NCBI GenBank assembly: GCA_018303825.1
Contig: JAGVXK010000001.1
Location: 1 to 18,556, forward strand
Direction: 5' to 3'
Length of the DNA stretch: 18,556 nucleotides
Source: Candidatus Pacearchaeota archaeon
GTDB lineage: Archaea; Nanobdellota; Nanobdellia; Pacearchaeales; GW2011-AR1
Numbering within the stretch: position 1 is the stretch's first letter; each line of letters begins with the position of its first letter. Positions 288 through 14,928 of the stretch are shown piece by piece. The position numbers and the translations under genes are program-made. Under the pieces are notes generated by a model, which saw only the letters and a program-made list of their open reading frames with translations, did no database searches and was not told where the DNA came from.

Positions 288-2009
288 ATGAGAATAATAA
301 CATTGCATTGCGATTATATTAAGTTCAAGCCTATAAAAAAAGCCATCAAATCTGCCGAAGAGCTTGATGAAAAAGGGAAAAAAGAGAAGGAAATAAAAGA
401 CCCCCTTGTTGTTCTTACAGCAGTTGAGCAGGGAGACAACGACCAAATTGTAAAACAATACATTGAAAGCATAAAAAAGACTGCGGAAGAAGTAAAGGCA
501 AAGAAGATTGTTCTTTACCCATATGCGCATCTTTCTTCAAATCTTGCTGACCCCACAACCGCAAGGGAATATATGGTTGAGGCGGAAGAAGTGCTGGCGA
601 AAGAGGGTTTTGAAGTTACAAGGGCTCCTTTTGGATATTACAAAGAATTTGAATTGAAATGCAAGGGACATCCTTTAAGTGAATTGAGCAAAGAATTCAG
701 AGTTCAGGGAGCTGCGACAGTTAACAAGAAAGGGGAAGTTAAACAACATAAAGAAGGAGGAAAGATAATACTTGACAGGAGAAACCTTCCTGCTAATGAC
801 CATAGAATATTAGGGGAAGACTTGCAAATATTTCATTTAAGTGATGATGTCGGTCCAGGGTTGCCTTTGTGGCTGCCAAATGGGGAGGCAATAAGAAATC
901 AACTGATGTTATTCATGAGAGCAGAAGAAGAAAAGTTTGGGTATAAGTATGTCTCAACTCCGCATATAACAAAAGGAAGATTGTATGAAAAAACAGGGCA
1001 TTTACCATATTATGCGGACACAATGTTTCCTCCATTAAACATAGATGGAGTTGATTATTATCTTAAGCCCATGAACTGTCCGCACCACCATATGATATTT
1101 AATAAGATTGTAAAATCATACAGGGATTTACCATTAAGATTAGCAGAAGAAGGTGCAGTATATAGAAATGAATTATCTGGAGTTACATATGGATTGATAA
1201 GAGTTAGAAGCATGACAATGAATGATGCGCATATATACGTAACACCAGAACAGTTAAAGGGTGAATTCATAAAGGTACTTGAGCTTTTCGAGGAAGTATA
1301 CAAAGTGTTAGGCATAAAAGATTACTGGTTCAGGCTTTCTCTTCCTAATTTCAAGAGAAATCCTGAAAAGTATACTGGCAATCCAAAAGAATGGGAATAC
1401 GCAAGCAATGAGATAAAGAAAGCAATGAAAGAGTGGGGAAAGAAGTTCGTGGAAGGGGAAGGAGAGGCAGCTTTCTATGGGCCAAAGATAGATATTCAGA
1501 TAAAAAACACACAAGGCAAAGAAGAGACGATAGCAACAAGCCAAGTGGATATTGTAATTCCTAAAAGACTAGGTATGACCTATGTGGATGATAAGGGAGA
1601 AAAGAAAACTCCTATTGTTATTCATAGGGCAATAGTTGGTACAATGGAAAGATTCACGGCTTTCTTATTAGAGCAAACTTCTGGAAATCTTCCACTCTGG
1701 CTTTCTCCCGTGCAAGTAAGAGTAATCAACTTCACAGATAGAAATACAAAGGCTGCTGAGAAAATAATTGAAAAATTAAGAAAAGAAATCCCAAATATCA
1801 GGATAGATTCTGATTTCAGGAATACAACTGTAAATGATAAAGTCAGAGACAGCGAAATGATGAAAATACCTTACCTGGTTACAATTGGAGATAAAGAAGA
1901 AGAAAAATCTACATTAGCTATAAAGAAAAGGGGAGAAAAACCAGAGTTTGGAGTTAAAATAGATAAGTTTATTAAAGAAGCTTCAGATAAAATCTTGAAA
2001 ATGGAATAA
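288..2009 (+). CDS. thrS: Threonyl-tRNA synthetase (archaeal DTD-like editing domain plus class II catalytic and anticodon-binding domains)
   Basis: N-terminus MRIITLHCDYIKF...YPYAHLS...RAPFGYYKEFELKCKGHPLSELSK is the archaeal Thr editing domain. Core motifs: LKPMNCPHH (Zn), YRNELSG...GLIRVRSMTMNDAHI, GEAAFYGPKIDI, VIHRAIVGTMERF, WLSPVQV. TATA-like TTTAAATA at about 259-266. Confidence 0.97.
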   Translation: MRIITLHCDYIKFKPIKKAIKSAEELDEKGKKEKEIKDPLVVLTAVEQGDNDQIVKQYIESIKKTAEEVKAKKIVLYPYAHLSSNLADPTTAREYMVEAEEVLAKEGFEVTRAPFGYYKEFELKCKGHPLSELSKEFRVQGAATVNKKGEVKQHKEGGKIILDRRNLPANDHRILGEDLQIFHLSDDVGPGLPLWLPNGEAIRNQLMLFMRAEEEKFGYKYVSTPHITKGRLYEKTGHLPYYADTMFPPLNIDGVDYYLKPMNCPHHHMIFNKIVKSYRDLPLRLAEEGAVYRNELSGVTYGLIRVRSMTMNDAHIYVTPEQLKGEFIKVLELFEEVYKVLGIKDYWFRLSLPNFKRNPEKYTGNPKEWEYASNEIKKAMKEWGKKFVEGEGEAAFYGPKIDIQIKNTQGKEETIATSQVDIVIPKRLGMTYVDDKGEKKTPIVIHRAIVGTMERFTAFLLEQTSGNLPLWLSPVQVRVINFTDRNTKAAEKIIEKLRKEIPNIRIDSDFRNTTVNDKVRDSEMMKIPYLVTIGDKEEEKSTLAIKKRGEKPEFGVKIDKFIKEASDKILKME

Positions 2010-2025
2010 AAAGGAGAAATAAAAG

Positions 2026-2718
2026 ATGAAAATAGCGCCATACGTTGAAAGACTTGAAAAATCCAAAGAGTATAAGGATTTTCGTAAAAAGTATAAAAAC
2101 TCCTTTATGGCAGTTGGTTTCTTTGTCCTTGACCTAGAATTAGGAAAAAACATTCATCAGCTTGACTTTTATGTTCCAAGCGAGAAAAAGATAGCCGCAT
2201 TTACACTTGACAGCGGGGTAAAAGTGCAGTTGCTTGAAACTATGAATAACAAGGTTCCTGAGAAGCTGGATATGAATACAAATGTTGACCTTGACGCGCT
2301 TCATGGCATCCTTGAAGATGAAATGAAAAACAGGAACATTACAGATGAAATAAAGAAAATAGTTGCTATTTTGCAGAATATTGATGGAAAAAAGCTTTGG
2401 AACTTAAACTGTGTTCTTTCCGGAATGCAGATACTTAGAGCCCATGTTGATGATGCTTCTAAATCTGTTTTGAAAATGGAAAGGCTCTCTATGATGGACC
2501 TGATGCAAAAAGTTCCAGGAAACATGCTAAAAGAAGCAGTAAAGGGAAAGATGAGCAAAGATGATGTAAAATCCGAGCTAGGAAAGTTGGACAAAATGGA
2601 AGAAGAGATAGAAAAAGAAAAGAAAGAACTCGCCTTTGAGTTGGAAAAAAAGGAAAGCATTGCCAAAGAAGAAAAAGAAGCCAAGAAACAAGCAAAGCCA
2701 AAAATGAACAAGAAATAG
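2026..2718 (+). CDS. Hypothetical protein with charged coiled-coil C-terminus
   Basis: 230-aa ORF directly after thrS, with AAGGAG SD-like site upstream and a Lys/Glu-rich tail. No recognisable catalytic motif. Confidence 0.8.
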   Translation: MKIAPYVERLEKSKEYKDFRKKYKNSFMAVGFFVLDLELGKNIHQLDFYVPSEKKIAAFTLDSGVKVQLLETMNNKVPEKLDMNTNVDLDALHGILEDEMKNRNITDEIKKIVAILQNIDGKKLWNLNCVLSGMQILRAHVDDASKSVLKMERLSMMDLMQKVPGNMLKEAVKGKMSKDDVKSELGKLDKMEEEIEKEKKELAFELEKKESIAKEEKEAKKQAKPKMNKK

Positions 2719-2747
2719 TTTAAATAAGACAATTCTTCTATAGATTA

Positions 2748-3371
2748 ATGGCTGAGCAAAAAAAGGAAAGGTACGAATTTATCAAGGAAACATCAAATAA
2801 ACAAAGATTGATAGTGTTCTTTATTTCATTGTTTGTAATACTGCTTCTTTTGAGTTCAATCATAACACTTTATATTATTTTTAAGGATTCAATAAATCAA
2901 TCTCAGTCGTTGCATGCTTTCAAATCATTTCTAGGCAATGAAGTCAAAAATGCCAGCCCCTTAGGAGTATTTTATGCCTCATTTACCGGAGCATTCTTCT
3001 TTATGTTTACTCCAATAGAACTTTTTTTCACTATTAGTTTAAGGAATGGAAATCCTCCTTTGCTTGTCCTGTTTTTTACTCTTGCGGGGATTATCCCTGC
3101 TTATTTAATTAATTATTTTATAGGTGCTAAGGCAGGAAGATTTATCCTCAATTTCATTTCAAAGAAAAAAATTTACGCTGCGAGAAGAAAAGTAAATAAA
3201 TATGGGGTTTATGCAATTCTTTTGTTCAGCATTCTTCCCTTGCCAGCAGACCTATTAACTCTCGGTTTGGGAATGACAAAATACAATATTCTTAGGCTGT
3301 TTAGCTTTATTATTATCGGAAGTCTCATTAAATATGGCTTTCTGATACTTATTTTTAAAGGGATATTCTAA
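2748..3371 (+). CDS. DedA/VTT (SNARE-associated, YqaA-like) membrane protein
   Basis: Several hydrophobic segments. Family-like motifs PIELFF, NYFIG, KYGVYAILLFSILPLPADLLTLGLGMTKY, IGSLIKY. Confidence 0.85.
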   Translation: MAEQKKERYEFIKETSNKQRLIVFFISLFVILLLLSSIITLYIIFKDSINQSQSLHAFKSFLGNEVKNASPLGVFYASFTGAFFFMFTPIELFFTISLRNGNPPLLVLFFTLAGIIPAYLINYFIGAKAGRFILNFISKKKIYAARRKVNKYGVYAILLFSILPLPADLLTLGLGMTKYNILRLFSFIIIGSLIKYGFLILIFKGIF

Positions 3372-3531
3372 GTTTAACAGAGCGTCTTAATTTAATCTTG
3401 CCAATATTAATTACATGTATGAATTGTAAGATTCTTTGCTCAAATTGCCTAAAGTTATCTTGGTTATGCTATATTTGGTTCTAGATAAAGGTGTAAAATA
3501 AATTTATAAACACGTAAAATCATAGAAAGAT

Positions 3532-3975
3532 ATGAAAATAGAAGTATTATCTGAATCTTTGTATTCCCCGGAAAGGACATTTGATGTGATGAAATTGAGG
3601 GGAAAGAAGGTGATAACATCGAAGGGGCTTGTTATGGGAAAAGTGAAAAAAGTAATAGTTGGCCGAAAGTCATTTAACATTGAGGGAATAATAATGGGAA
3701 GAAAGTTTTCTTTCAAAAAGATATATATTGGAGAAAGCTATTTCCAAAGCATGTCAGAAAAGGCCTTGATTTTGTCAATTGAACCTTCTTTTCTGCTTAT
3801 TGGAAAAAAAGTATTGAACAATGAAGGGAAAGTAATTGGAAAAGTAAAAGAAGTTATGAGAAAGGGAGATTCAAATGACTTTGAGAGCTTGATTGTGAAA
3901 TCATTCTGGAAGAAAAGCTTTACTGTCAAATCTGGAGAGATTAAATTCCTGGGGAAGTCAATTGTATTAAAATAA
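3532..3975 (+). CDS. Tandem PRC-barrel domain protein (CdpB-like)
   Basis: Two repeats of the PRC pattern (LRGKKVITSKGLVMGKVKKV; LIGKKVLNNEGKVIGKVKEV). TTTATAAA about 25 nt upstream. Confidence 0.85.
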   Translation: MKIEVLSESLYSPERTFDVMKLRGKKVITSKGLVMGKVKKVIVGRKSFNIEGIIMGRKFSFKKIYIGESYFQSMSEKALILSIEPSFLLIGKKVLNNEGKVIGKVKEVMRKGDSNDFESLIVKSFWKKSFTVKSGEIKFLGKSIVLK

Positions 3976-3976
3976 A

Positions 3977-4450
3977 ATGGTGAGAGAAAAAATATCTGTA
4001 GAAAATGCTGGAGAATTGATTACTTCGGATGATATTCTTGGAAAAGAGGTTATAGATGCGGAAGGGGATTTCATAGGCATCGCCGAGTCTGTTTTTATCA
4101 ACCCAAAAAACCTTGATTTTGTTGGAATTTCAATTGATAAGGGATTCCTGAAGAAAGGCCTCATGATTGGAAAAGAATATGTAAAAAATATAACCCCTTA
4201 CGCTGTTTTTCTTAATGTCAGACCCGCATATTTGCTTAAGGGAATGGATATATTTGATATTGAGGGAGAAAAGGTTGGAAGTGTGAAGGAATTGATATTG
4301 AGAGATAATAAGAATCAGATAAAAAAAATAATCACTTCTCTTGGAATGCTGAAGAAAAGAATAGAAATTGATGCGCAATTTATAAAATCAATAGGAGAGA
4401 ATGTTTTCCTTAATGTAAAGAAGAGAGAGATAATCCAATTGATGCGATAG
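3977..4450 (+). CDS. Tandem PRC-barrel domain protein (CdpB-like), second paralogue
   Basis: Two PRC repeats (ILGKEVIDAEGDFIGIAESV; LKGMDIFDIEGEKVGSVKEL). Starts 1 nt after the previous stop. Confidence 0.85.
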   Translation: MVREKISVENAGELITSDDILGKEVIDAEGDFIGIAESVFINPKNLDFVGISIDKGFLKKGLMIGKEYVKNITPYAVFLNVRPAYLLKGMDIFDIEGEKVGSVKELILRDNKNQIKKIITSLGMLKKRIEIDAQFIKSIGENVFLNVKKREIIQLMR

Positions 4451-4454
4451 ATAA

Positions 4455-4994
4455 TTATTTTACAAGACCCTTGTTCCAAAGCATCTTGGTATACCCTTCT
4501 TTTACCGGCTTTTTCTTTGCTAAGCCCAGGGATTTTATTGCTAAAAGAACTCTTTTTCTGGCAACTTCAATCTCGTTTGGCTTTGCCAGGTATTCTACTT
4601 CAACAAACCAGCCTAAACCATGAACATTGTTTATTTCTATGTGCAAATTTTTTGCTATTTCATATAATTCAGTTATTTTTTCCTTTCTTGCCCATTTTTT
4701 ATATCCAAAATCTTTTATTAAAGCAAGAAAACCATTTATATCTGAAACATTGAATTCAACTTCTTTTTTCGCATGAACCCCTTTTTCATACTTCCATTCG
4801 TGCTTGAAGTTTATTTGATGTGCTCTATTGAGCTTTCTTACTCTTAGGCTTTTCTTTGGATATCTGTCCAATGATTCAAGAGTGTAATAATCATCTACTT
4901 TTCTTTGCTTTCCTTTATACTTCCCCAGAAGGCTTGCCCTTCTCCTTATTTCATTTACATTAGAAATTGCTATTTTTAACTCCACCTCTATCAT
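4455..4994 (-). CDS. CYTH domain protein (class IV adenylate cyclase / triphosphate tunnel metalloenzyme family)
   Basis: N-terminal ExExK motif (MIEVELK), DDYY, LRVR, KKEVEF, V.GLGWFVEVE, and a GY near the C-terminus. Confidence 0.9.
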   Translation of the reverse strand: MIEVELKIAISNVNEIRRRASLLGKYKGKQRKVDDYYTLESLDRYPKKSLRVRKLNRAHQINFKHEWKYEKGVHAKKEVEFNVSDINGFLALIKDFGYKKWARKEKITELYEIAKNLHIEINNVHGLGWFVEVEYLAKPNEIEVARKRVLLAIKSLGLAKKKPVKEGYTKMLWNKGLVK

Positions 4995-5036
4995 GATTTA
5001 TTTAGGATGATATAGTTTAAAAATTATCTCCTAACA

Positions 5037-5161
5037 GGTTTTGTTAAGCTAACGGGTGATGACCAATTTTATCATCGGTACTTTATGATATTAATTTAAG
5101 CGAACTTTCATAGTTTATAGTCGGTATTTTGGGTTTTATCACCTTTTAATTTAACAGAACC
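5037..5161. mobile_element. 125-bp IS6-like MITE with 8-bp target-site duplication
   Basis: Terminal IRs GGTTTTGTTAAGCTAACGGGTGAT and GGTTCTGTTAAATTAAAAGGTGAT (19/24 match). Identical flanking TCCTAACA at 5029-5036 and 5162-5169. GGTTCTGT termini and an 8-bp TSD are typical of IS6. Confidence 0.85.
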
Positions 5162-8032: not shown

Positions 8033-8109
8033 GGACCGCAAATAAACGGCACCTATTCTAATTGTTATTACTCAAATTTTACCTTATCCCAAACTGCATC
8101 AACTATCTC
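8033..8109. repeat. Solo decayed copy of the left end of the 12091-14842 element, including the 3' end of an unknown gene
   Basis: 8043-8102 matches 12102-12161 at 49/60 nt. The minus strand encodes EIVDAVWDKVKFE* versus KIIDAIWDKIKFE*. GGACCGCAAA at 8033 is a transition-decayed GAGCTGTAAA terminus. Confidence 0.8.
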
Positions 8110-11539: not shown

Positions 11540-12082
11540 ATGGCTAGACCTAAGAAGCAAAAGATAAAGATTGTTGAATCAAAGATAAAAAGTATTGAGC
11601 AAACTGGGAAACCTGTTGGGCAAACATTGGAAAAAGAGCTGGAGCAGGAATCAAAGGAGCAATTTCATGAATTTATCTCAACAGGGAAGATGAAAGCTCC
11701 TGTTCTGGAGACTGGACAAAACGTTCAAAACATTGAAACACCAACAGAACAAAAACAAACAGCAAATACAACTGAAACTGGAAGGGGGGCGCAGATAAAC
11801 CCTGAATTCTCTGTTTATGAAATGGCAAGGACTGTCGGGAGAACAGAAACAAGAGCATCAAGGGCGAAATATGAAGCAATGACACATGGGGGAGACCCTG
11901 TTATGATGAAAACCATTAACGCACAAAGACCAAATGAAACAGCAACCATTATGAATGACAGGAGAGCAGGGTTTGTCAATCCAGAATTAGAGAGGTTAAA
12001 TGCTGGAAGGGAAGACTATTATGGAGTTAAGATAGAGAAAGAAGAGAAGAAGAAAGACACCAGAATGCCCTGGGAAACATGA
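11540..12082 (+). CDS. Hypothetical hydrophilic protein
   Basis: ORF track gives 11387-12082, but that overlaps the upstream gene. TTTATATA at about 11511-11518 supports a start at ATG 11540 (or 11531). The stop codon overlaps the left TSD. Confidence 0.7.
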   Translation: MARPKKQKIKIVESKIKSIEQTGKPVGQTLEKELEQESKEQFHEFISTGKMKAPVLETGQNVQNIETPTEQKQTANTTETGRGAQINPEFSVYEMARTVGRTETRASRAKYEAMTHGGDPVMMKTINAQRPNETATIMNDRRAGFVNPELERLNAGREDYYGVKIEKEEKKKDTRMPWET

Positions 12083-12126
12083 TAAAAGGTGAGCTGTAAA
12101 GTAAACGGCACCTATTCTAACCAAAG

Positions 12127-12183
12127 TTACTCAAATTTTATCTTGTCCCAGATCGCATCAATAATCTTTCTTTTGATTAATCG
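12127..12183 (-). pseudogene. 3' remnant of an unidentified gene (RLIKRKIIDAIWDKIKFE*)
   Basis: Conserved at protein level with the copy at 8068-8109 (mostly synonymous or conservative changes). The 5' part is missing at the IS200 junction. Confidence 0.6.
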
Positions 12184-12725
12184 TTATACCCTATGGTCTT
12201 GCCATAGGGTGAGAGCCAATAACTATTAAACCTAAAAATATGTTGGCTTATCTATGGATGAACTTGAAAAATCAGCACATAAGATTTTCAAATTGAAATA
12301 TCACTTTGTCTTTTGTGTAAAATATAGAAAAGATATGTTTCTCGATAAAGATTACTGTGAAACCTTTACATATACTTGTAAACAAATGGAAGAAAGATAT
12401 TCGATGAAATTCGAAACGATTGGTTTTGATGAAAATCATGTTCACTTTATGCTAAAATCTTTGGCAAAATATTCTCCATCTCAACTTTTTAGAATCGTGA
12501 AAAGTGTTACAGCATTAAGAATGTTCAAAACTTATCCCAAGATAAAAGATGAATTATGGGGTGGAGAATTTTGGAGTGATGGCGGATATGTTGGTACGGT
12601 TGGTGAAGGAGTTAATGCGGACATCATTAGAGATTACATTAAAAAACAAGGTAGAAAAGGAGAACAGCTTAAGCTGTTCGAATTCATCTAAAGATGCCAC
12701 GAGGTCTTGCCTCGTGGAGCTTCAC
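12184..12725 (+). mobile_element. IS200-type insertion sequence (tnpA only), nested in the larger element
   Basis: Left hairpin ACCCTATGG-TCTTG-CCATAGGGT (12188-12210) and right hairpin CCACGAGG-TCTTG-CCTCGTGG (12697-12717), ending in TCAC (12722-12725). The left boundary is approximate. Confidence 0.9.
12254..12691 (+). CDS. tnpA: IS200/IS605 family Y1 (HUH) transposase
   Basis: YHFVFCVKYRK, HUH motif ENHVHF, FWSDGGYVGTVG, and catalytic Tyr in DYIKKQ. Confidence 0.96.
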   Translation: MDELEKSAHKIFKLKYHFVFCVKYRKDMFLDKDYCETFTYTCKQMEERYSMKFETIGFDENHVHFMLKSLAKYSPSQLFRIVKSVTALRMFKTYPKIKDELWGGEFWSDGGYVGTVGEGVNADIIRDYIKKQGRKGEQLKLFEFI

Positions 12726-12772
12726 TTATTTCGTTTTGAAAGTTCGCTTTTTAAAAATGAGAGGATTTCTAA

Positions 12773-13603
12773 TTATTTTTGCACGGTGCCTTCGGCACTT
12801 TTAACAACTACCCGACCAACCTCGTCGGAGCCCAGAGGATCCCCAATGTGGCCAGCACCGAGGAGCCCGTAGACACCCAGCCTCGAAAATCTTTTACTTC
12901 CAGAAACTCCGTAAAAATGTTTACCTTGTCCTCTAACTGGAAAAGCAGTAGTTGGATCTAATTTTGAGAAGTCATATCCTTCTTGTGCTTCCTTTGCTGT
13001 AATCTCAATAGGCCTAACAGCATCTTTAACGGTTGGATTTAGTCTGAATGAATAACTGCTAACTTTTCCGAATGGAGAATTATCTCCTTCAAGTCTAACA
13101 GGAACTATTGCTCTATAAGGAACTGAAACAATTGCTTTAGAACCATGCATAGCATCAATCTCTCTGTTCAGCTCCTCTTCCCAAGGCATTAACTTGTCCT
13201 GAGTTGCATATGGATTTCTTATAAAAGAGACATCAAACCAGAACCTTCCATTGAAAAATCCTTTCTTTCCTTCAGCTAATCTTCTAACTTCATCATTATA
13301 AATTCTAGCATGATCTCTTTCGTCGCATAACTGAATTCCCAAATCTTCCAGATCAACTAAGTTTAAACCAGCTAGGACAGGCAAATTTGATTCAACAAGT
13401 TCCTTCCCTTTATCAGTGTTTGCTATTCTAAGAGTGCCTTCTAATCCAGGAAAACCCTGAAACTGTTCTCTAAATTTTCTTGTTGCTCTTTCTAGGACTT
13501 CGTCTGCTAAATCGCCAGAAATAACATTATAGTCCATCCTCATTTCTCTAACTGGAATAGTTTCAACAAATCCTTCAAATTGCAGTTGTTTTTCATTAAA
13601 CAT
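12773..13603 (-). CDS. Putative DGR variable (target) protein, DPANN-type with C-terminal CLec-like variable region
   Basis: C-terminus SRL...S...GRVVV.SAEG matches the architecture I recognise in Pacearchaeota DGR targets. The last ~25 variable codons are strongly A-depleted and GC-rich. TATTTAAA (minus-strand TTTAAATA) at 13625-13632. Confidence 0.75.
   Translation of the reverse strand: MFNEKQLQFEGFVETIPVREMRMDYNVISGDLADEVLERATRKFREQFQGFPGLEGTLRIANTDKGKELVESNLPVLAGLNLVDLEDLGIQLCDERDHARIYNDEVRRLAEGKKGFFNGRFWFDVSFIRNPYATQDKLMPWEEELNREIDAMHGSKAIVSVPYRAIVPVRLEGDNSPFGKVSSYSFRLNPTVKDAVRPIEITAKEAQEGYDFSKLDPTTAFPVRGQGKHFYGVSGSKRFSRLGVYGLLGAGHIGDPLGSDEVGRVVVKSAEGTVQK
12786..12798 (-). other. GC-rich hairpin 3' of the VR (candidate DGR homing stem-loop)
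   Basis: Coding strand GTGCC-GAA-GGCAC: 5-bp stem with GAA loop, 13 nt after the VR core. Confidence 0.6.
12812..12886 (-). other. Putative DGR variable region (VR)
   Basis: 75 nt on the coding strand with only 7 adenines and 50 G+C (67%) in an otherwise AT-rich gene. Codons such as GGT, TAC, CTC, GGC, CAC, ATT, CCT, GAC and GTT are all derivable from AAY by changes at A only. Confidence 0.72.
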
Positions 13604-13685
13604 ACTTTTTCTAAAAATAAAGGATATTTAAAGCTTTCTATTTGTTACTATAGGATAGTTACTACAACGGAGAGATAGTTATTCT

Positions 13686-13720
13686 TTCATGTACCGAAAG
13701 ATATATAAGTGTCATGTACC
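13686..13720 (+). promoter_or_regulatory. Transposase promoter with CATGTACC boxes flanking the TATA box
   Basis: CATGTACC at 13688-13695 and 13713-13720 around ATATATAAG (13701-13709). Bases 13686-13710 match the reverse complement of 14777-14801 at 22/25. Confidence 0.65.
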
Positions 13721-13730
13721 TGAATACAGT

Positions 13731-14597
13731 ATGGTGAGCGTTATTATTTGTAAGCATTGTAAGTCAAACAATAATTACAAAAAAGGGTTTAGGAGAACAG
13801 AATTCAGAGGGAAGATACAGAAATATTATTGTAAAACTTGCCATAAATTCTTTACAAATGATGATGGATTTTATAGAATGAGAAACAATCCCGGCATTAT
13901 AACTATGTCGATTGATATGTATGTGTCTAATTTATCTTCTAGGAAAATGAGAAATCAATTAAAAAGACATCTTAATTATAAGATAAGTCATATTTCTATA
14001 TTGGATTGGGTAAGGAGATATGCTTTAAGAGTTAGCAGATTTGTTGAAAGATTAGGTTATAACTTGGGAGAAAGTTTTTATGCAGATGAAACAGTTATAT
14101 TCAGAGAAGGAAAACAAGATAAGTTTTGGTGTTGTTTAGATTGGGATACAAGATTAATAACTGGATTTCACTATTCTTTATCGGCTAACCCAACACAAGC
14201 ACAAGAGTTTTTGAAAAAAGCAATAAGCAAAGGAAAACCAAAATATATTCAAACAGACGCAGGAGTATTTTATCCGAGAGCTTTCAAAAAGCTCTTTTAT
14301 TCTAATAAACTAAGCGGTCTGACAATAGAACATAAGATACAAAACTACCAAACAACACATATTCACAATTATAGAATTGAAACTGTCTTTATGAAAATCA
14401 AAGACAGAGTTCTTGATTTTAGAGGACTAAAAGCTTTATGGTCTGCCCCTATTTTGATGACTGCAATAGTTATCCAGCATAACTTTATAGAAAATCATTC
14501 AACAACAGATGAAGTTCCTTGTGATAGCGCAAATGCAGACTTAAATTTAAGCGAGAATAGATGGCTAGATTTAATTCATTTATCAGCCAACAAATGA
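13731..14597 (+). CDS. IS6-like DDE transposase with N-terminal zinc ribbon
   Basis: CKHC...CKTC zinc ribbon, HTH (SSRKMRNQLKRHLNYKISHISILDWVRRY), and DDE triad in YADET, IQTDA and RIETVF. Start moved from 13689 to ATG 13731 because the upstream ATG lies before the TATA box. Confidence 0.88.
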   Translation: MVSVIICKHCKSNNNYKKGFRRTEFRGKIQKYYCKTCHKFFTNDDGFYRMRNNPGIITMSIDMYVSNLSSRKMRNQLKRHLNYKISHISILDWVRRYALRVSRFVERLGYNLGESFYADETVIFREGKQDKFWCCLDWDTRLITGFHYSLSANPTQAQEFLKKAISKGKPKYIQTDAGVFYPRAFKKLFYSNKLSGLTIEHKIQNYQTTHIHNYRIETVFMKIKDRVLDFRGLKALWSAPILMTAIVIQHNFIENHSTTDEVPCDSANADLNLSENRWLDLIHLSANK

Positions 14598-14756
14598 TTA
14601 TTCTTTTTCGATAATTATCTTATCTTTTTCTAACTTTGCTTTGAGATCCTTTCCTAAAAGCTTTGATTCCTGGACAATATTTTTAGGTAGAATGACGATG
14701 TATCTTGTGTACTTCTTATCTCCAATCTTTTTATCTAACACCTCTCTTATTTTCAT
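14598..14756 (-). CDS. AbrB/MazE/SpoVT-like small DNA-binding protein
   Basis: 52 aa, MKIREV...KYTRYIVILPKNIVQESKL.GKDL...EKDKIIIEKE, fitting the swapped-hairpin pattern. Its stop directly abuts the transposase stop (TGA|TTA). Confidence 0.75.
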   Translation of the reverse strand: MKIREVLDKKIGDKKYTRYIVILPKNIVQESKLLGKDLKAKLEKDKIIIEKE

Positions 14757-14776
14757 AACTTGAATAAGAAAGTTAA

Positions 14777-14801
14777 ACTTATAAATATGTCGGTACATGA
14801 A
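14777..14801 (-). promoter_or_regulatory. Promoter of the AbrB-like gene, mirror copy of the transposase promoter
   Basis: Minus strand TTCATGTACCGACATATTTATAAGT: CATGTACC box then TTTATAA, about 22-30 nt before ATG 14756. Confidence 0.65.
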
Positions 14802-14928
14802 GCAAAAATCTTGAAAAATAGGTAACGCTAACTTAACAGCTCATAAAAGGTTAGTTTTAAATAAAGTCTTTGATTAGATAAGATAGGCAAGTTGATAAGG
14901 ATAAAAAAGAGGGGTAAACAAGATAAAA

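Follow-up and report, generated by a model that had tools for sequence, protein, structure and literature searches.

Organization of the locus

The window analysed here is a stretch of 18,556 nt (contig 17) from the genome of a Candidatus Pacearchaeota archaeon (assembly GCA_018303825.1; 0.8 Mb, 35% G+C, 86% complete, 23 contigs). Public homologues of the window genes are labelled Nanoarchaeota, that is, DPANN archaea. Positions 12090-14843 carry an element of 2754 bp, delimited by family alignment, which includes an IS6-like DDE transposase gene, a small AbrB/MazE-like gene, a nested IS200/IS605 element and a passenger gene (P0001) coding for the variable protein of a diversity-generating retroelement (DGR). 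The element lies between two groups of host genes: a 531-aa gene and a small gene upstream, and a conserved 617-aa gene and a 315-aa gene downstream. Its features, and those immediately flanking it, are the following.

12083-12089, no strand: left target-site duplication TAAAAGG, 7 bp, with the ends read as in the rest of the family
12090-12116, plus strand: terminal inverted repeat on the cargo side, the canonical right end of the family (matches the right ends of 39 metagenomic elements)
12117-12130, no strand: 14-nt linker ending in TTAC, the likely IS200/IS605 target tetranucleotide (the arrangement recurs at 8040-8108)
12131-12725, plus strand: nested IS200/IS605-family element, with boundaries placed by flank homology
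12726-12772, minus strand: 3' flank of P0001, homologous to the spacer preceding the template repeat (TR) in intact cassettes
12773-13603, minus strand: passenger gene P0001, 276-aa DGR variable protein with a predicted C-type-lectin-like fold (homologues, variable region, predicted structure)
12786-12798, minus strand: 13-nt hairpin with a GAAG loop just after the variable region, like the DGR target-recognition hairpin
12806-12889, minus strand: variable region (VR), 84 nt, A-poor, recognized by adenine-biased differences from homologous templates
13604-13668, minus strand: passenger promoter (BRE/TATA, i.e. B recognition element and TATA box, at 13624-13637) and an upstream TAGTAAC-type motif, shared with other DGR targets
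13679-13730, plus strand: transposase promoter, with a TATA box between two CATGTACC boxes (13688 and 13713)
13731-14597, plus strand: IS6-like DDE transposase, 288 aa, intact, with an N-terminal zinc ribbon (profile matches)
14598-14756, minus strand: AbrB/MazE-like gene, 52 aa, convergent with the transposase gene (PF04014 at family level)
14757-14808, minus strand: small-gene promoter with one CATGTACC box (14792-14799), forming an inverted repeat with the transposase promoter
14817-14843, minus strand: terminal inverted repeat on the regulator side, the canonical left end of the family (family end alignment)
14844-14850, no strand: right target-site duplication, a copy of 12083-12089
14856-14863, plus strand: TATA box of the 617-aa host gene that follows the element, 5 nt past the duplication

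Ends of the element and insertion site

The segment 12090-14843 very probably corresponds to a single transposon of a large IS6-related family of DPANN archaea, whose passenger in this copy is an orphan DGR variable-protein gene. It is considered as one unit because its ends match the family consensus and a target duplication flanks them. The inverted repeats of a preliminary description of this DNA (12091-12116 and 14817-14842, 21 of 26 positions matching) are present, as is the sequence ATAAAAGGT on both sides of them (12082-12090 and 14843-14851). The unit and the ends proposed there are retained while its limits are corrected, since the ends of the family include one extra base on each side. 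The termini are in fact TGAGCTGT...ACAGCTCA: just outside GAGCTGT, nearly all elements have T at the left and A at the right. The same 27-bp ends bound 39 complete metagenomic relatives and two further copies in the source genome; these terminal repeats are therefore not fortuitous. On the cargo side of the family, the 27-bp end is the sole conserved sequence.

When the elements are read with T...A termini, a perfect 8-bp duplication is observed in 32 of 41 elements and a 7/8 match in 2 more. The 9-bp duplication initially proposed for the window copy is really one of 7 bp (TAAAAGG) with the terminal T and A counted in, the family norm being 8 bp. Both the 7-bp and the 9-bp readings predict an identical empty site, ...CATGATAAAAGGTTAG..., in which position 12089 is joined to position 14851 (...GATAAAAGGTTAG...).

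Gene order around the insertion is kept in the genomes of four other genera. The gap between the 531-aa and 617-aa genes is 700-1100 bp in these genomes versus 3454 bp in the window, a length equal to 700 bp plus the element. No transposase gene and no relative of P0001 occurs between the two genes in the four genera, and the nested IS200 element is not found at this locus either. The conserved synteny, together with a gap difference equal to the element, implies a single insertion into a gene block that is intact elsewhere. This comparison also bears on another explanation, in which a solo end and an independent insertion sequence (IS) would have come to be paired by chance, the DNA between them being ordinary host sequence. 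This genome does contain solo or decayed ends (contig 13, position 68936; window, 8040-8060). However, the duplication lies at the exact outer edges of the unit, the gap in the four genera is the window gap minus the element, the 276-aa gene and the IS200 element are not at the locus in relatives, and a layout of two ends enclosing cargo is the norm for the family, so that a pairing of this kind is extremely unlikely. A structure composed of an IS plus a solo end was likewise rejected, since no internal right end is found just after the transposase gene at up to 4 mismatches in 17 nt in any of 80 loci.

The insertion was originally placed at the stop codon of a host gene. An insertion there is better described as lying 5 nt upstream of the next promoter, that of the 617-aa gene (TATA box at 14856-14863). 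A TATA-like heptamer starts exactly 5 nt past the duplication in 23 of the 41 elements, and within 3-8 nt of it in 31 of them. The family as a whole prefers target sites located 5 nt from a TATA box.

The transposon family and its cargo

The family was delineated by scanning metagenomes with the window transposase, which retrieved 80 loci (transposase identity 75-87%). In 39 of them the two ends could be located, giving complete elements of 1.7-6.3 kb. The order of their components is constant: a 27-bp end, the small gene, the transposase gene, 0.57-5.1 kb of cargo and the second 27-bp end. The small gene is always present and, in either orientation, always upstream of the transposase gene. 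The cargo is far more heterogeneous, with 102 open reading frames (ORFs) falling into 77 clusters. These include N6/N4 and C5 DNA methylases, an NgoPII restriction enzyme, a serpin, CAP-domain proteins, TrmB and ArsR regulators, ABC permeases and HNH proteins.

Two further copies were identified in the source genome. The first (contig 20, 11460-15614; positions 961-5115 of locus L056) is 4.15 kb long, has the family ends and is flanked by an 8-bp duplication (CGATATTG). It carries genes for a 755-aa signal-peptide protein and a 149-aa membrane protein. Its transposase gene contains one in-frame TGA, and its AbrB-like gene (PF04014, E 3e-5) is divergent from the transposase gene. The other copy is defective. 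Its halves lie on contig 5 (1-420) and contig 16 (1-306), with an 8-bp duplication (CTGAAACA), and one of its ends is joined straight to the middle of the transposase gene. The variety of cargo in the 39 complete relatives and in the contig-20 copy bears out the earlier proposal that the window unit is a cargo transposon.

The closest relative of the transposase in a genome (79% amino acid identity) is located on contig 17 of another assembly (locus L027 of G042). There, a regulator-side end, the small gene and the transposase gene are directly followed by a convergent Xer-like recombinase gene, and no second family end occurs within the fetched locus. In four loci (L060, L075, L084 and L104) the TATA box of the first cargo gene is located 5-8 nt inside the cargo-side end and reads inward, an arrangement that may have a bearing on cargo acquisition or expression.

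DPANN archaea are host-dependent and have very small genomes, and the ways in which they gain and shuffle accessory genes are poorly known. Literature searches found no description of this cargo-carrying DPANN family, which is abundant, related to IS6, equipped with a repressor-like gene and ever-changing passengers, and lands at a fixed distance from promoters. It has the appearance of a general gene shuttle for these archaea. The features that are new in the window copy are the DGR passenger, the nested IS200 element and the inversion of the transposase module.

The transposase, the small regulator and their promoters

The window transposase matches the Pfam profile PF13610 (DDE_Tnp_IS240) with an E value of 3.6e-13 (50.3 bits, cut-off 27) and the NCBIfam IS6 model over positions 1-201 of 202 (E 1.4e-23, 83.7 bits, curated cut-off 125). 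Its N-terminal zinc ribbon shows a weak match to NF050000. These matches agree with its preliminary identification as an intact zinc-ribbon DDE transposase, weak as the zinc-ribbon match is. The likeliest start of the transposase gene is 13731 rather than 13689 and that of the small gene is 14756 (52 aa); both starts are used in the gene calls of other assemblies. The stop codons of the two genes abut (14597/14598).

The small proteins of the family match PF04014 (swapped-hairpin, MazE/AbrB fold) in 21 of 29 cases, with a best E value of 2.4e-7, although the window copy alone gives no match. A profile search of solved structures with the small protein retrieves MazE at an E value of 0.05 only. 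The AbrB-like nature attributed to this regulator thus holds at the level of the family.

The transposase and small-gene promoters form an inverted repeat of 32 nt (81%), which confirms an inner sequence similarity already noticed in the preliminary description. The window contains three CATGTACC boxes (0.1 expected by chance), all of them at these two promoters: two boxes surround the TATA box of the transposase gene while the third is upstream of that of the small gene. The 52-aa protein most likely represses its own promoter and that of the transposase gene through these boxes, as judged from sequence.

The module composed of the promoters and the transposase gene (13679-14808) is inverted relative to all 80 metagenomic relatives. 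As a result of this inversion, the small gene is downstream of the transposase gene and convergent with it, and the cargo adjoins the 5' end of the transposase gene. The same convergent layout is found elsewhere only in the defective contig-5/16 copy of the source genome.

Relationship with IS6 and other mobile elements

Membership of IS1 was considered on account of the 9-bp duplication and the zinc ribbon, and was rejected. IS6 is preferred because its model gives the higher score (84 bits versus 42 for IS1) and because the ends and the 8-bp duplication of the family fit IS6. A plain IS6-like element of the same genome provides a cargo-free comparator (contig 13; positions 1420-2533 of locus L055). 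It is 1114 bp long and flanked by an 8-bp duplication (TGAATTAC), and its transposase is 26% identical to that of the window. Its ends begin with GGTTCTGT followed by an AAAGT core, and they align with those of the window element. The end consensus of the IS26/IS257 type is GGnnCTGT...AAAGT. In the cargo-carrying family, the CTGT and AAAGT cores align with the ends of the comparator while the outer bases are TGAG and not GG. The GAGCTGT terminus and the 9-bp duplication had been taken as signs of a distinct subgroup. Neither sustains this, since the family duplicates 8 bp and its ends align with the IS6-type GGTTCTGT...AAAGT. The family is set apart from IS6 by its regulator gene, its obligatory cargo and its choice of target.

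The nearest known relatives are the IS6/IS26 elements, and in particular the long zinc-finger clade h (Varani et al. 2021, PMC7986276), with which the window element shares a full-length match to the IS6 model, an N-terminal zinc ribbon, the CTGT...AAAGT end core and the 8-bp duplication of its family. However, IS6 members are compact (0.7-0.9 kb, up to 1.76 kb) and only one member with a passenger gene, ISDsp3, is named in the IS6 review (PMC7986276), whereas the window element measures 2754 bp, its relatives 1.7-6.3 kb, and every member carries an AbrB-like gene and passengers within its own ends. In addition, the ends of the family start with TG, not GG, insertion occurs at a fixed distance from a TATA box, and the match of the transposase to the IS6 model stays under the curated cut-off.

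Transporter insertion sequences (tIS, as defined by ISfinder) similarly have one transposase, two ends and unrelated passengers inside. Here, in contrast, the presence of cargo is the rule, its content changes in nearly all copies (77 clusters for 102 ORFs), and conservation on the cargo side is confined to 27 bp. The pseudo-compound transposons and translocatable units of IS26 are comparable as IS6-type elements that move adjacent accessory genes. They depend, however, either on a pair of complete IS copies arranged as a direct repeat or on a circle composed of one IS and adjacent DNA. Members of the present family have just one transposase gene, with no internal end after it, and their cargo is enclosed by one pair of inverted ends.

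The passenger gene codes for a DGR variable protein

P0001 has no match in Pfam or NCBIfam. Close homologues are limited to two among 5.8 billion proteins, and an exhaustive profile search yields ten representatives. The last 90 nt of the gene are G+C-rich and include 12 A, versus about 30 per 90 nt elsewhere. Three homologues are part of canonical cassettes (target, TR and reverse transcriptase, RT) at loci L020, L144 and L154. The template of L144 shows 0 non-adenine and 9-10 adenine mismatches and is followed by the RT gene; in L154, the VR differs from its own template at 16 of 26 A sites versus 2 of 58 non-A sites. The same bias is observed when the VR of P0001 is compared with these related templates: 17 of 24 A sites differ from the L020 template, versus 16 of 68 non-A sites (p 6e-5); with the L154 template, the corresponding figures are 19 of 26 and 11 of 58 (p 3.5e-6).

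Hairpins located after the VR have a role in DGR target recognition, as known from Bordetella phage. GAAG-loop hairpins like that of P0001 are also present in the DGR target of contig 20 and at L020, L139, L142 and L144, and their stems change in a compensating manner (judged by eye). The gene has its own promoter at 13604-13668, as had been proposed. This promoter is 78-80% identical to those of two other DGR targets of the genome (contig 20, 57776-57844; contig 19, 38380-38445). The similarity of the three promoters suggests that the passenger derives from a DGR locus resident in this lineage. A TAGTAACAA-type motif occurs just upstream of the BRE/TATA in the three DGR-target genes and also in front of an unrelated 97-aa gene (contig 18, 14125-14152), and may represent a common operator.

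An AlphaFold model of P0001 reached a predicted local distance difference test (pLDDT) score of 89 when built from 11 sequences, and of 33 when built from 3. In an all-against-all structural search, the top two matches of the model are TaqVP (5vf4; Z 6.0, root-mean-square deviation 4.0, 179 aligned residues) and the Nanoarchaeota protein AvpA (5ioo; Z 4.6). They are followed by C-type lectins and FGE-like proteins, with TvpA (2y3c) at Z 3.2; the scores are modest and the list is coherent. Foldseek found nothing significant against the PDB with the same model, and the sequence profile of P0001 gave only chance matches to haemagglutinin in the PDB, with no similarity to any solved variable protein. 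The adenine-biased differences in the VR, the GAAG hairpin and, for the predicted fold, these structural matches confirm the earlier recognition of a DGR-type hypervariable gene.

P0001 is thus similar to the known DGR variable proteins (TaqVP, AvpA, TvpA) in its C-terminal VR and, according to the model, in its C-type lectin fold. With remote or orphan DGR targets it shares adenine-specific differences from a template, here from related templates, and the GAAG hairpin after the VR. It differs from DGR variable proteins in that no cognate template or RT was found for it and in its location inside a DNA transposon.

A distant homologue, P0006, is encoded at locus L139 (303-2047). It has a strongly A-poor VR and a GAAG hairpin, and a convergent rve-type transposase gene lies 80 nt further on, in place of TR and RT. 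This arrangement is no more than a hint that such genes meet mobile elements more than once.

P0001 is separated from template repeat and reverse transcriptase

The 3' flank of P0001 (12726-12772) retains homology to the spacer that precedes the TR in intact cassettes. A GCGAACTTT-type motif, 35-50 nt after the stop codon, is common to L020, L142, L143, L144 and L154. In the window, the homology extends about 45 nt past the stop codon and stops at the right end of the IS200 element, and only 14 nt separate the left end of the latter from the end of the transposon. There is therefore no room for a TR. No cognate template was found in the 23 contigs with an adenine-tolerant scan, nor in the GTDB species representatives with a degenerate template pattern.

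RVT_1 is matched in this genome on contig 20 only. The corresponding DGR (55612-57778; locus L058) comprises a 275-aa target, a TR at about 56700-56790 and an RT. Over 80 nt, its template and VR show 0 non-adenine and 11 adenine mismatches. This template matches its own VR only, and no other target was found for it in the genome. A frameshift at a run of 10 G divides the RT gene of contig 20, and that of L020 is likewise divided at a run of 12 G; this could reflect either assembly errors at homopolymers or a recurrent slippery tract.

The P0001 protein shows no difference among 15 contigs, which come from at least 8 samples, and it is the sole member of its 90% cluster. As the contig-20 target, used as a control, is also the sole member of its own 90% cluster, this invariance is not discriminating. 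On sequence grounds, P0001 is an orphan and probably a frozen target.

The alternative is a working remote target, which would be diversified in trans by a TR and an RT encoded in the unassembled 14% of the genome, in a virus or in the host. The VR, its conserved 3' end and the GAAG-loop hairpin are indeed intact, and the promoter shared with the other DGR targets of the genome has been kept. However, neither the 23 contigs of this 86%-complete genome nor the GTDB representatives provide a template, that of contig 20 fits its own target only, and the protein is letter-for-letter the same in all 15 contigs, a weak argument in view of the control. We consider a working remote target unlikely.

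A third target-like gene indicates how a DGR target may lose its partners where it stands. It is located on contig 19 (37236-38445), codes for 259 aa and has a C-terminal VR-like stretch and a hairpin, followed only by a remnant of the C-terminal part of an RT, with no TR. This orphan arose by decay in place, without a transposon. Transposition is accordingly not needed to explain orphan targets.

Origin of the arrangement and role of the family

In the scenario that we favour, an orphan DGR gene carried as cargo by a member of the IS6-related family, the transposase would bind both ends and move the whole unit, most likely by a replicative, cointegrate-type reaction by analogy with the homologous IS6/IS26 elements. 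Transposition would generate the 7-8-bp target duplication at sites located 5 nt from a TATA box, under most likely repression of both element promoters by the 52-aa protein. Any DNA between the transposase gene and the far end would travel with the element. In the window copy, this DNA would be a DGR gene that retains its promoter, VR and hairpin and was severed some 50-60 nt past the stop codon, and it is because of the position of this cut that TR and RT would have been left behind. The IS200/IS605 element would have inserted later, after a TTAC, between the passenger gene and the transposon end.

Several observations weigh against this interpretation. The duplication of the window copy is 7 bp (or 9 bp), against 8 bp in the family. 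The transposase scores below the curated IS6 cut-off of NCBI (84 versus 125 bits). Its module is inverted, with the AbrB-like gene upstream of the transposase gene in all 80 relatives, and the activity of this layout is unproven. The genome is 86% complete, so that a cognate template could lie in the unassembled part. Finally, an exact search of metagenome contigs for the 34-nt junction of the empty site gave no match, an uninformative result as all public contigs of sufficient length carry the insertion: on the 15 public contigs with P0001, either the element is at the same site or the contig is too short to provide context. With no empty site recovered and the same site occupied in every informative contig, recent mobility is unsupported.

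According to the earlier proposal, DGR target cassettes, or formerly whole DGRs, are dispersed by this family, which would thereby explain how the remote targets of DPANN archaea arise. The window copy does carry a true DGR gene, with VR and hairpin, parted from its TR and RT, and the distant homologue P0006 directly adjoins an rve-type transposase gene and not a TR-RT pair. Against this, DGR parts (relatives of P0001 or of the contig-20 target, other DGR targets, DGR RTs) are carried by 0 of the 39 other complete elements, nor are they part of the contig-20 cargo copy. Moreover, three homologues keep their canonical cassette, the family ends are not found in the L020-L025 copies or in L154, and the contig-19 target became an orphan by decay in place. 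A general role of the family in dispersing DGR targets is thus very unlikely, and the DGR passenger is an unusual one-off and not the purpose of the family.

A narrower proposal is that IS6-like cargo transposons of DPANN archaea are able to cut a DGR target gene, with its promoter, VR and hairpin, from its TR and RT and to move it around the genome. It is tentative and we regard it as unlikely. If it is true, there would be a DNA-transposon route of DGR target dispersal beside decay in place, and the copies would become remote targets wherever the cell or a co-resident virus expresses a matching template. What the orphan passenger of the window transposon provides is one documented instance in which a DGR variable-protein gene was mobilised and its mutagenic machinery was not. 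It illustrates one way in which orphan VRs arise, and the view that this way is common is unsupported.

The nested IS200/IS605 element

The transposase, AbrB-like and variable-protein genes listed in the preliminary description are all retained, but a complete nested IS200/IS605 element (12131-12725) had been missed. Its tnpA gene (12254-12691, 145 aa) matches PF01797 (E 3.4e-29) and NF033573 (115 bits, cut-off 55) and is present as a single copy in the source genome. Hairpins with an identical TCTTG loop are located near the left end (about 12190-12212) and the right end (about 12697-12720). The segment 12127-12178, considered as the 3' end of a gene, was rejected as such since it is the IS200 left end. 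No Rfam family reaches threshold anywhere in the window.

The nested element resembles the IS608-like members of IS200/IS605 in its Y1 (HUH) TnpA, which scores above the curated cut-off, in the hairpins near both ends, in its insertion after TTAC and in the lack of inverted ends and of a target duplication, its right boundary being placed from flank homology. Unlike them, it is single-copy and has no tnpB.

Fragments of the IS200 left end are also present at 8068-8108 of the window and on contig 22 (85803-85854). At 8040-8108, the inner half of a decayed cargo-side end (8040-8060) is followed by the same 14-nt linker with its TTAC (8064-8067) and then by the IS200 left end. This segment corresponds either to an older copy of the same composite or to a preference of the IS200 element for a TTAC just inside the transposon end.

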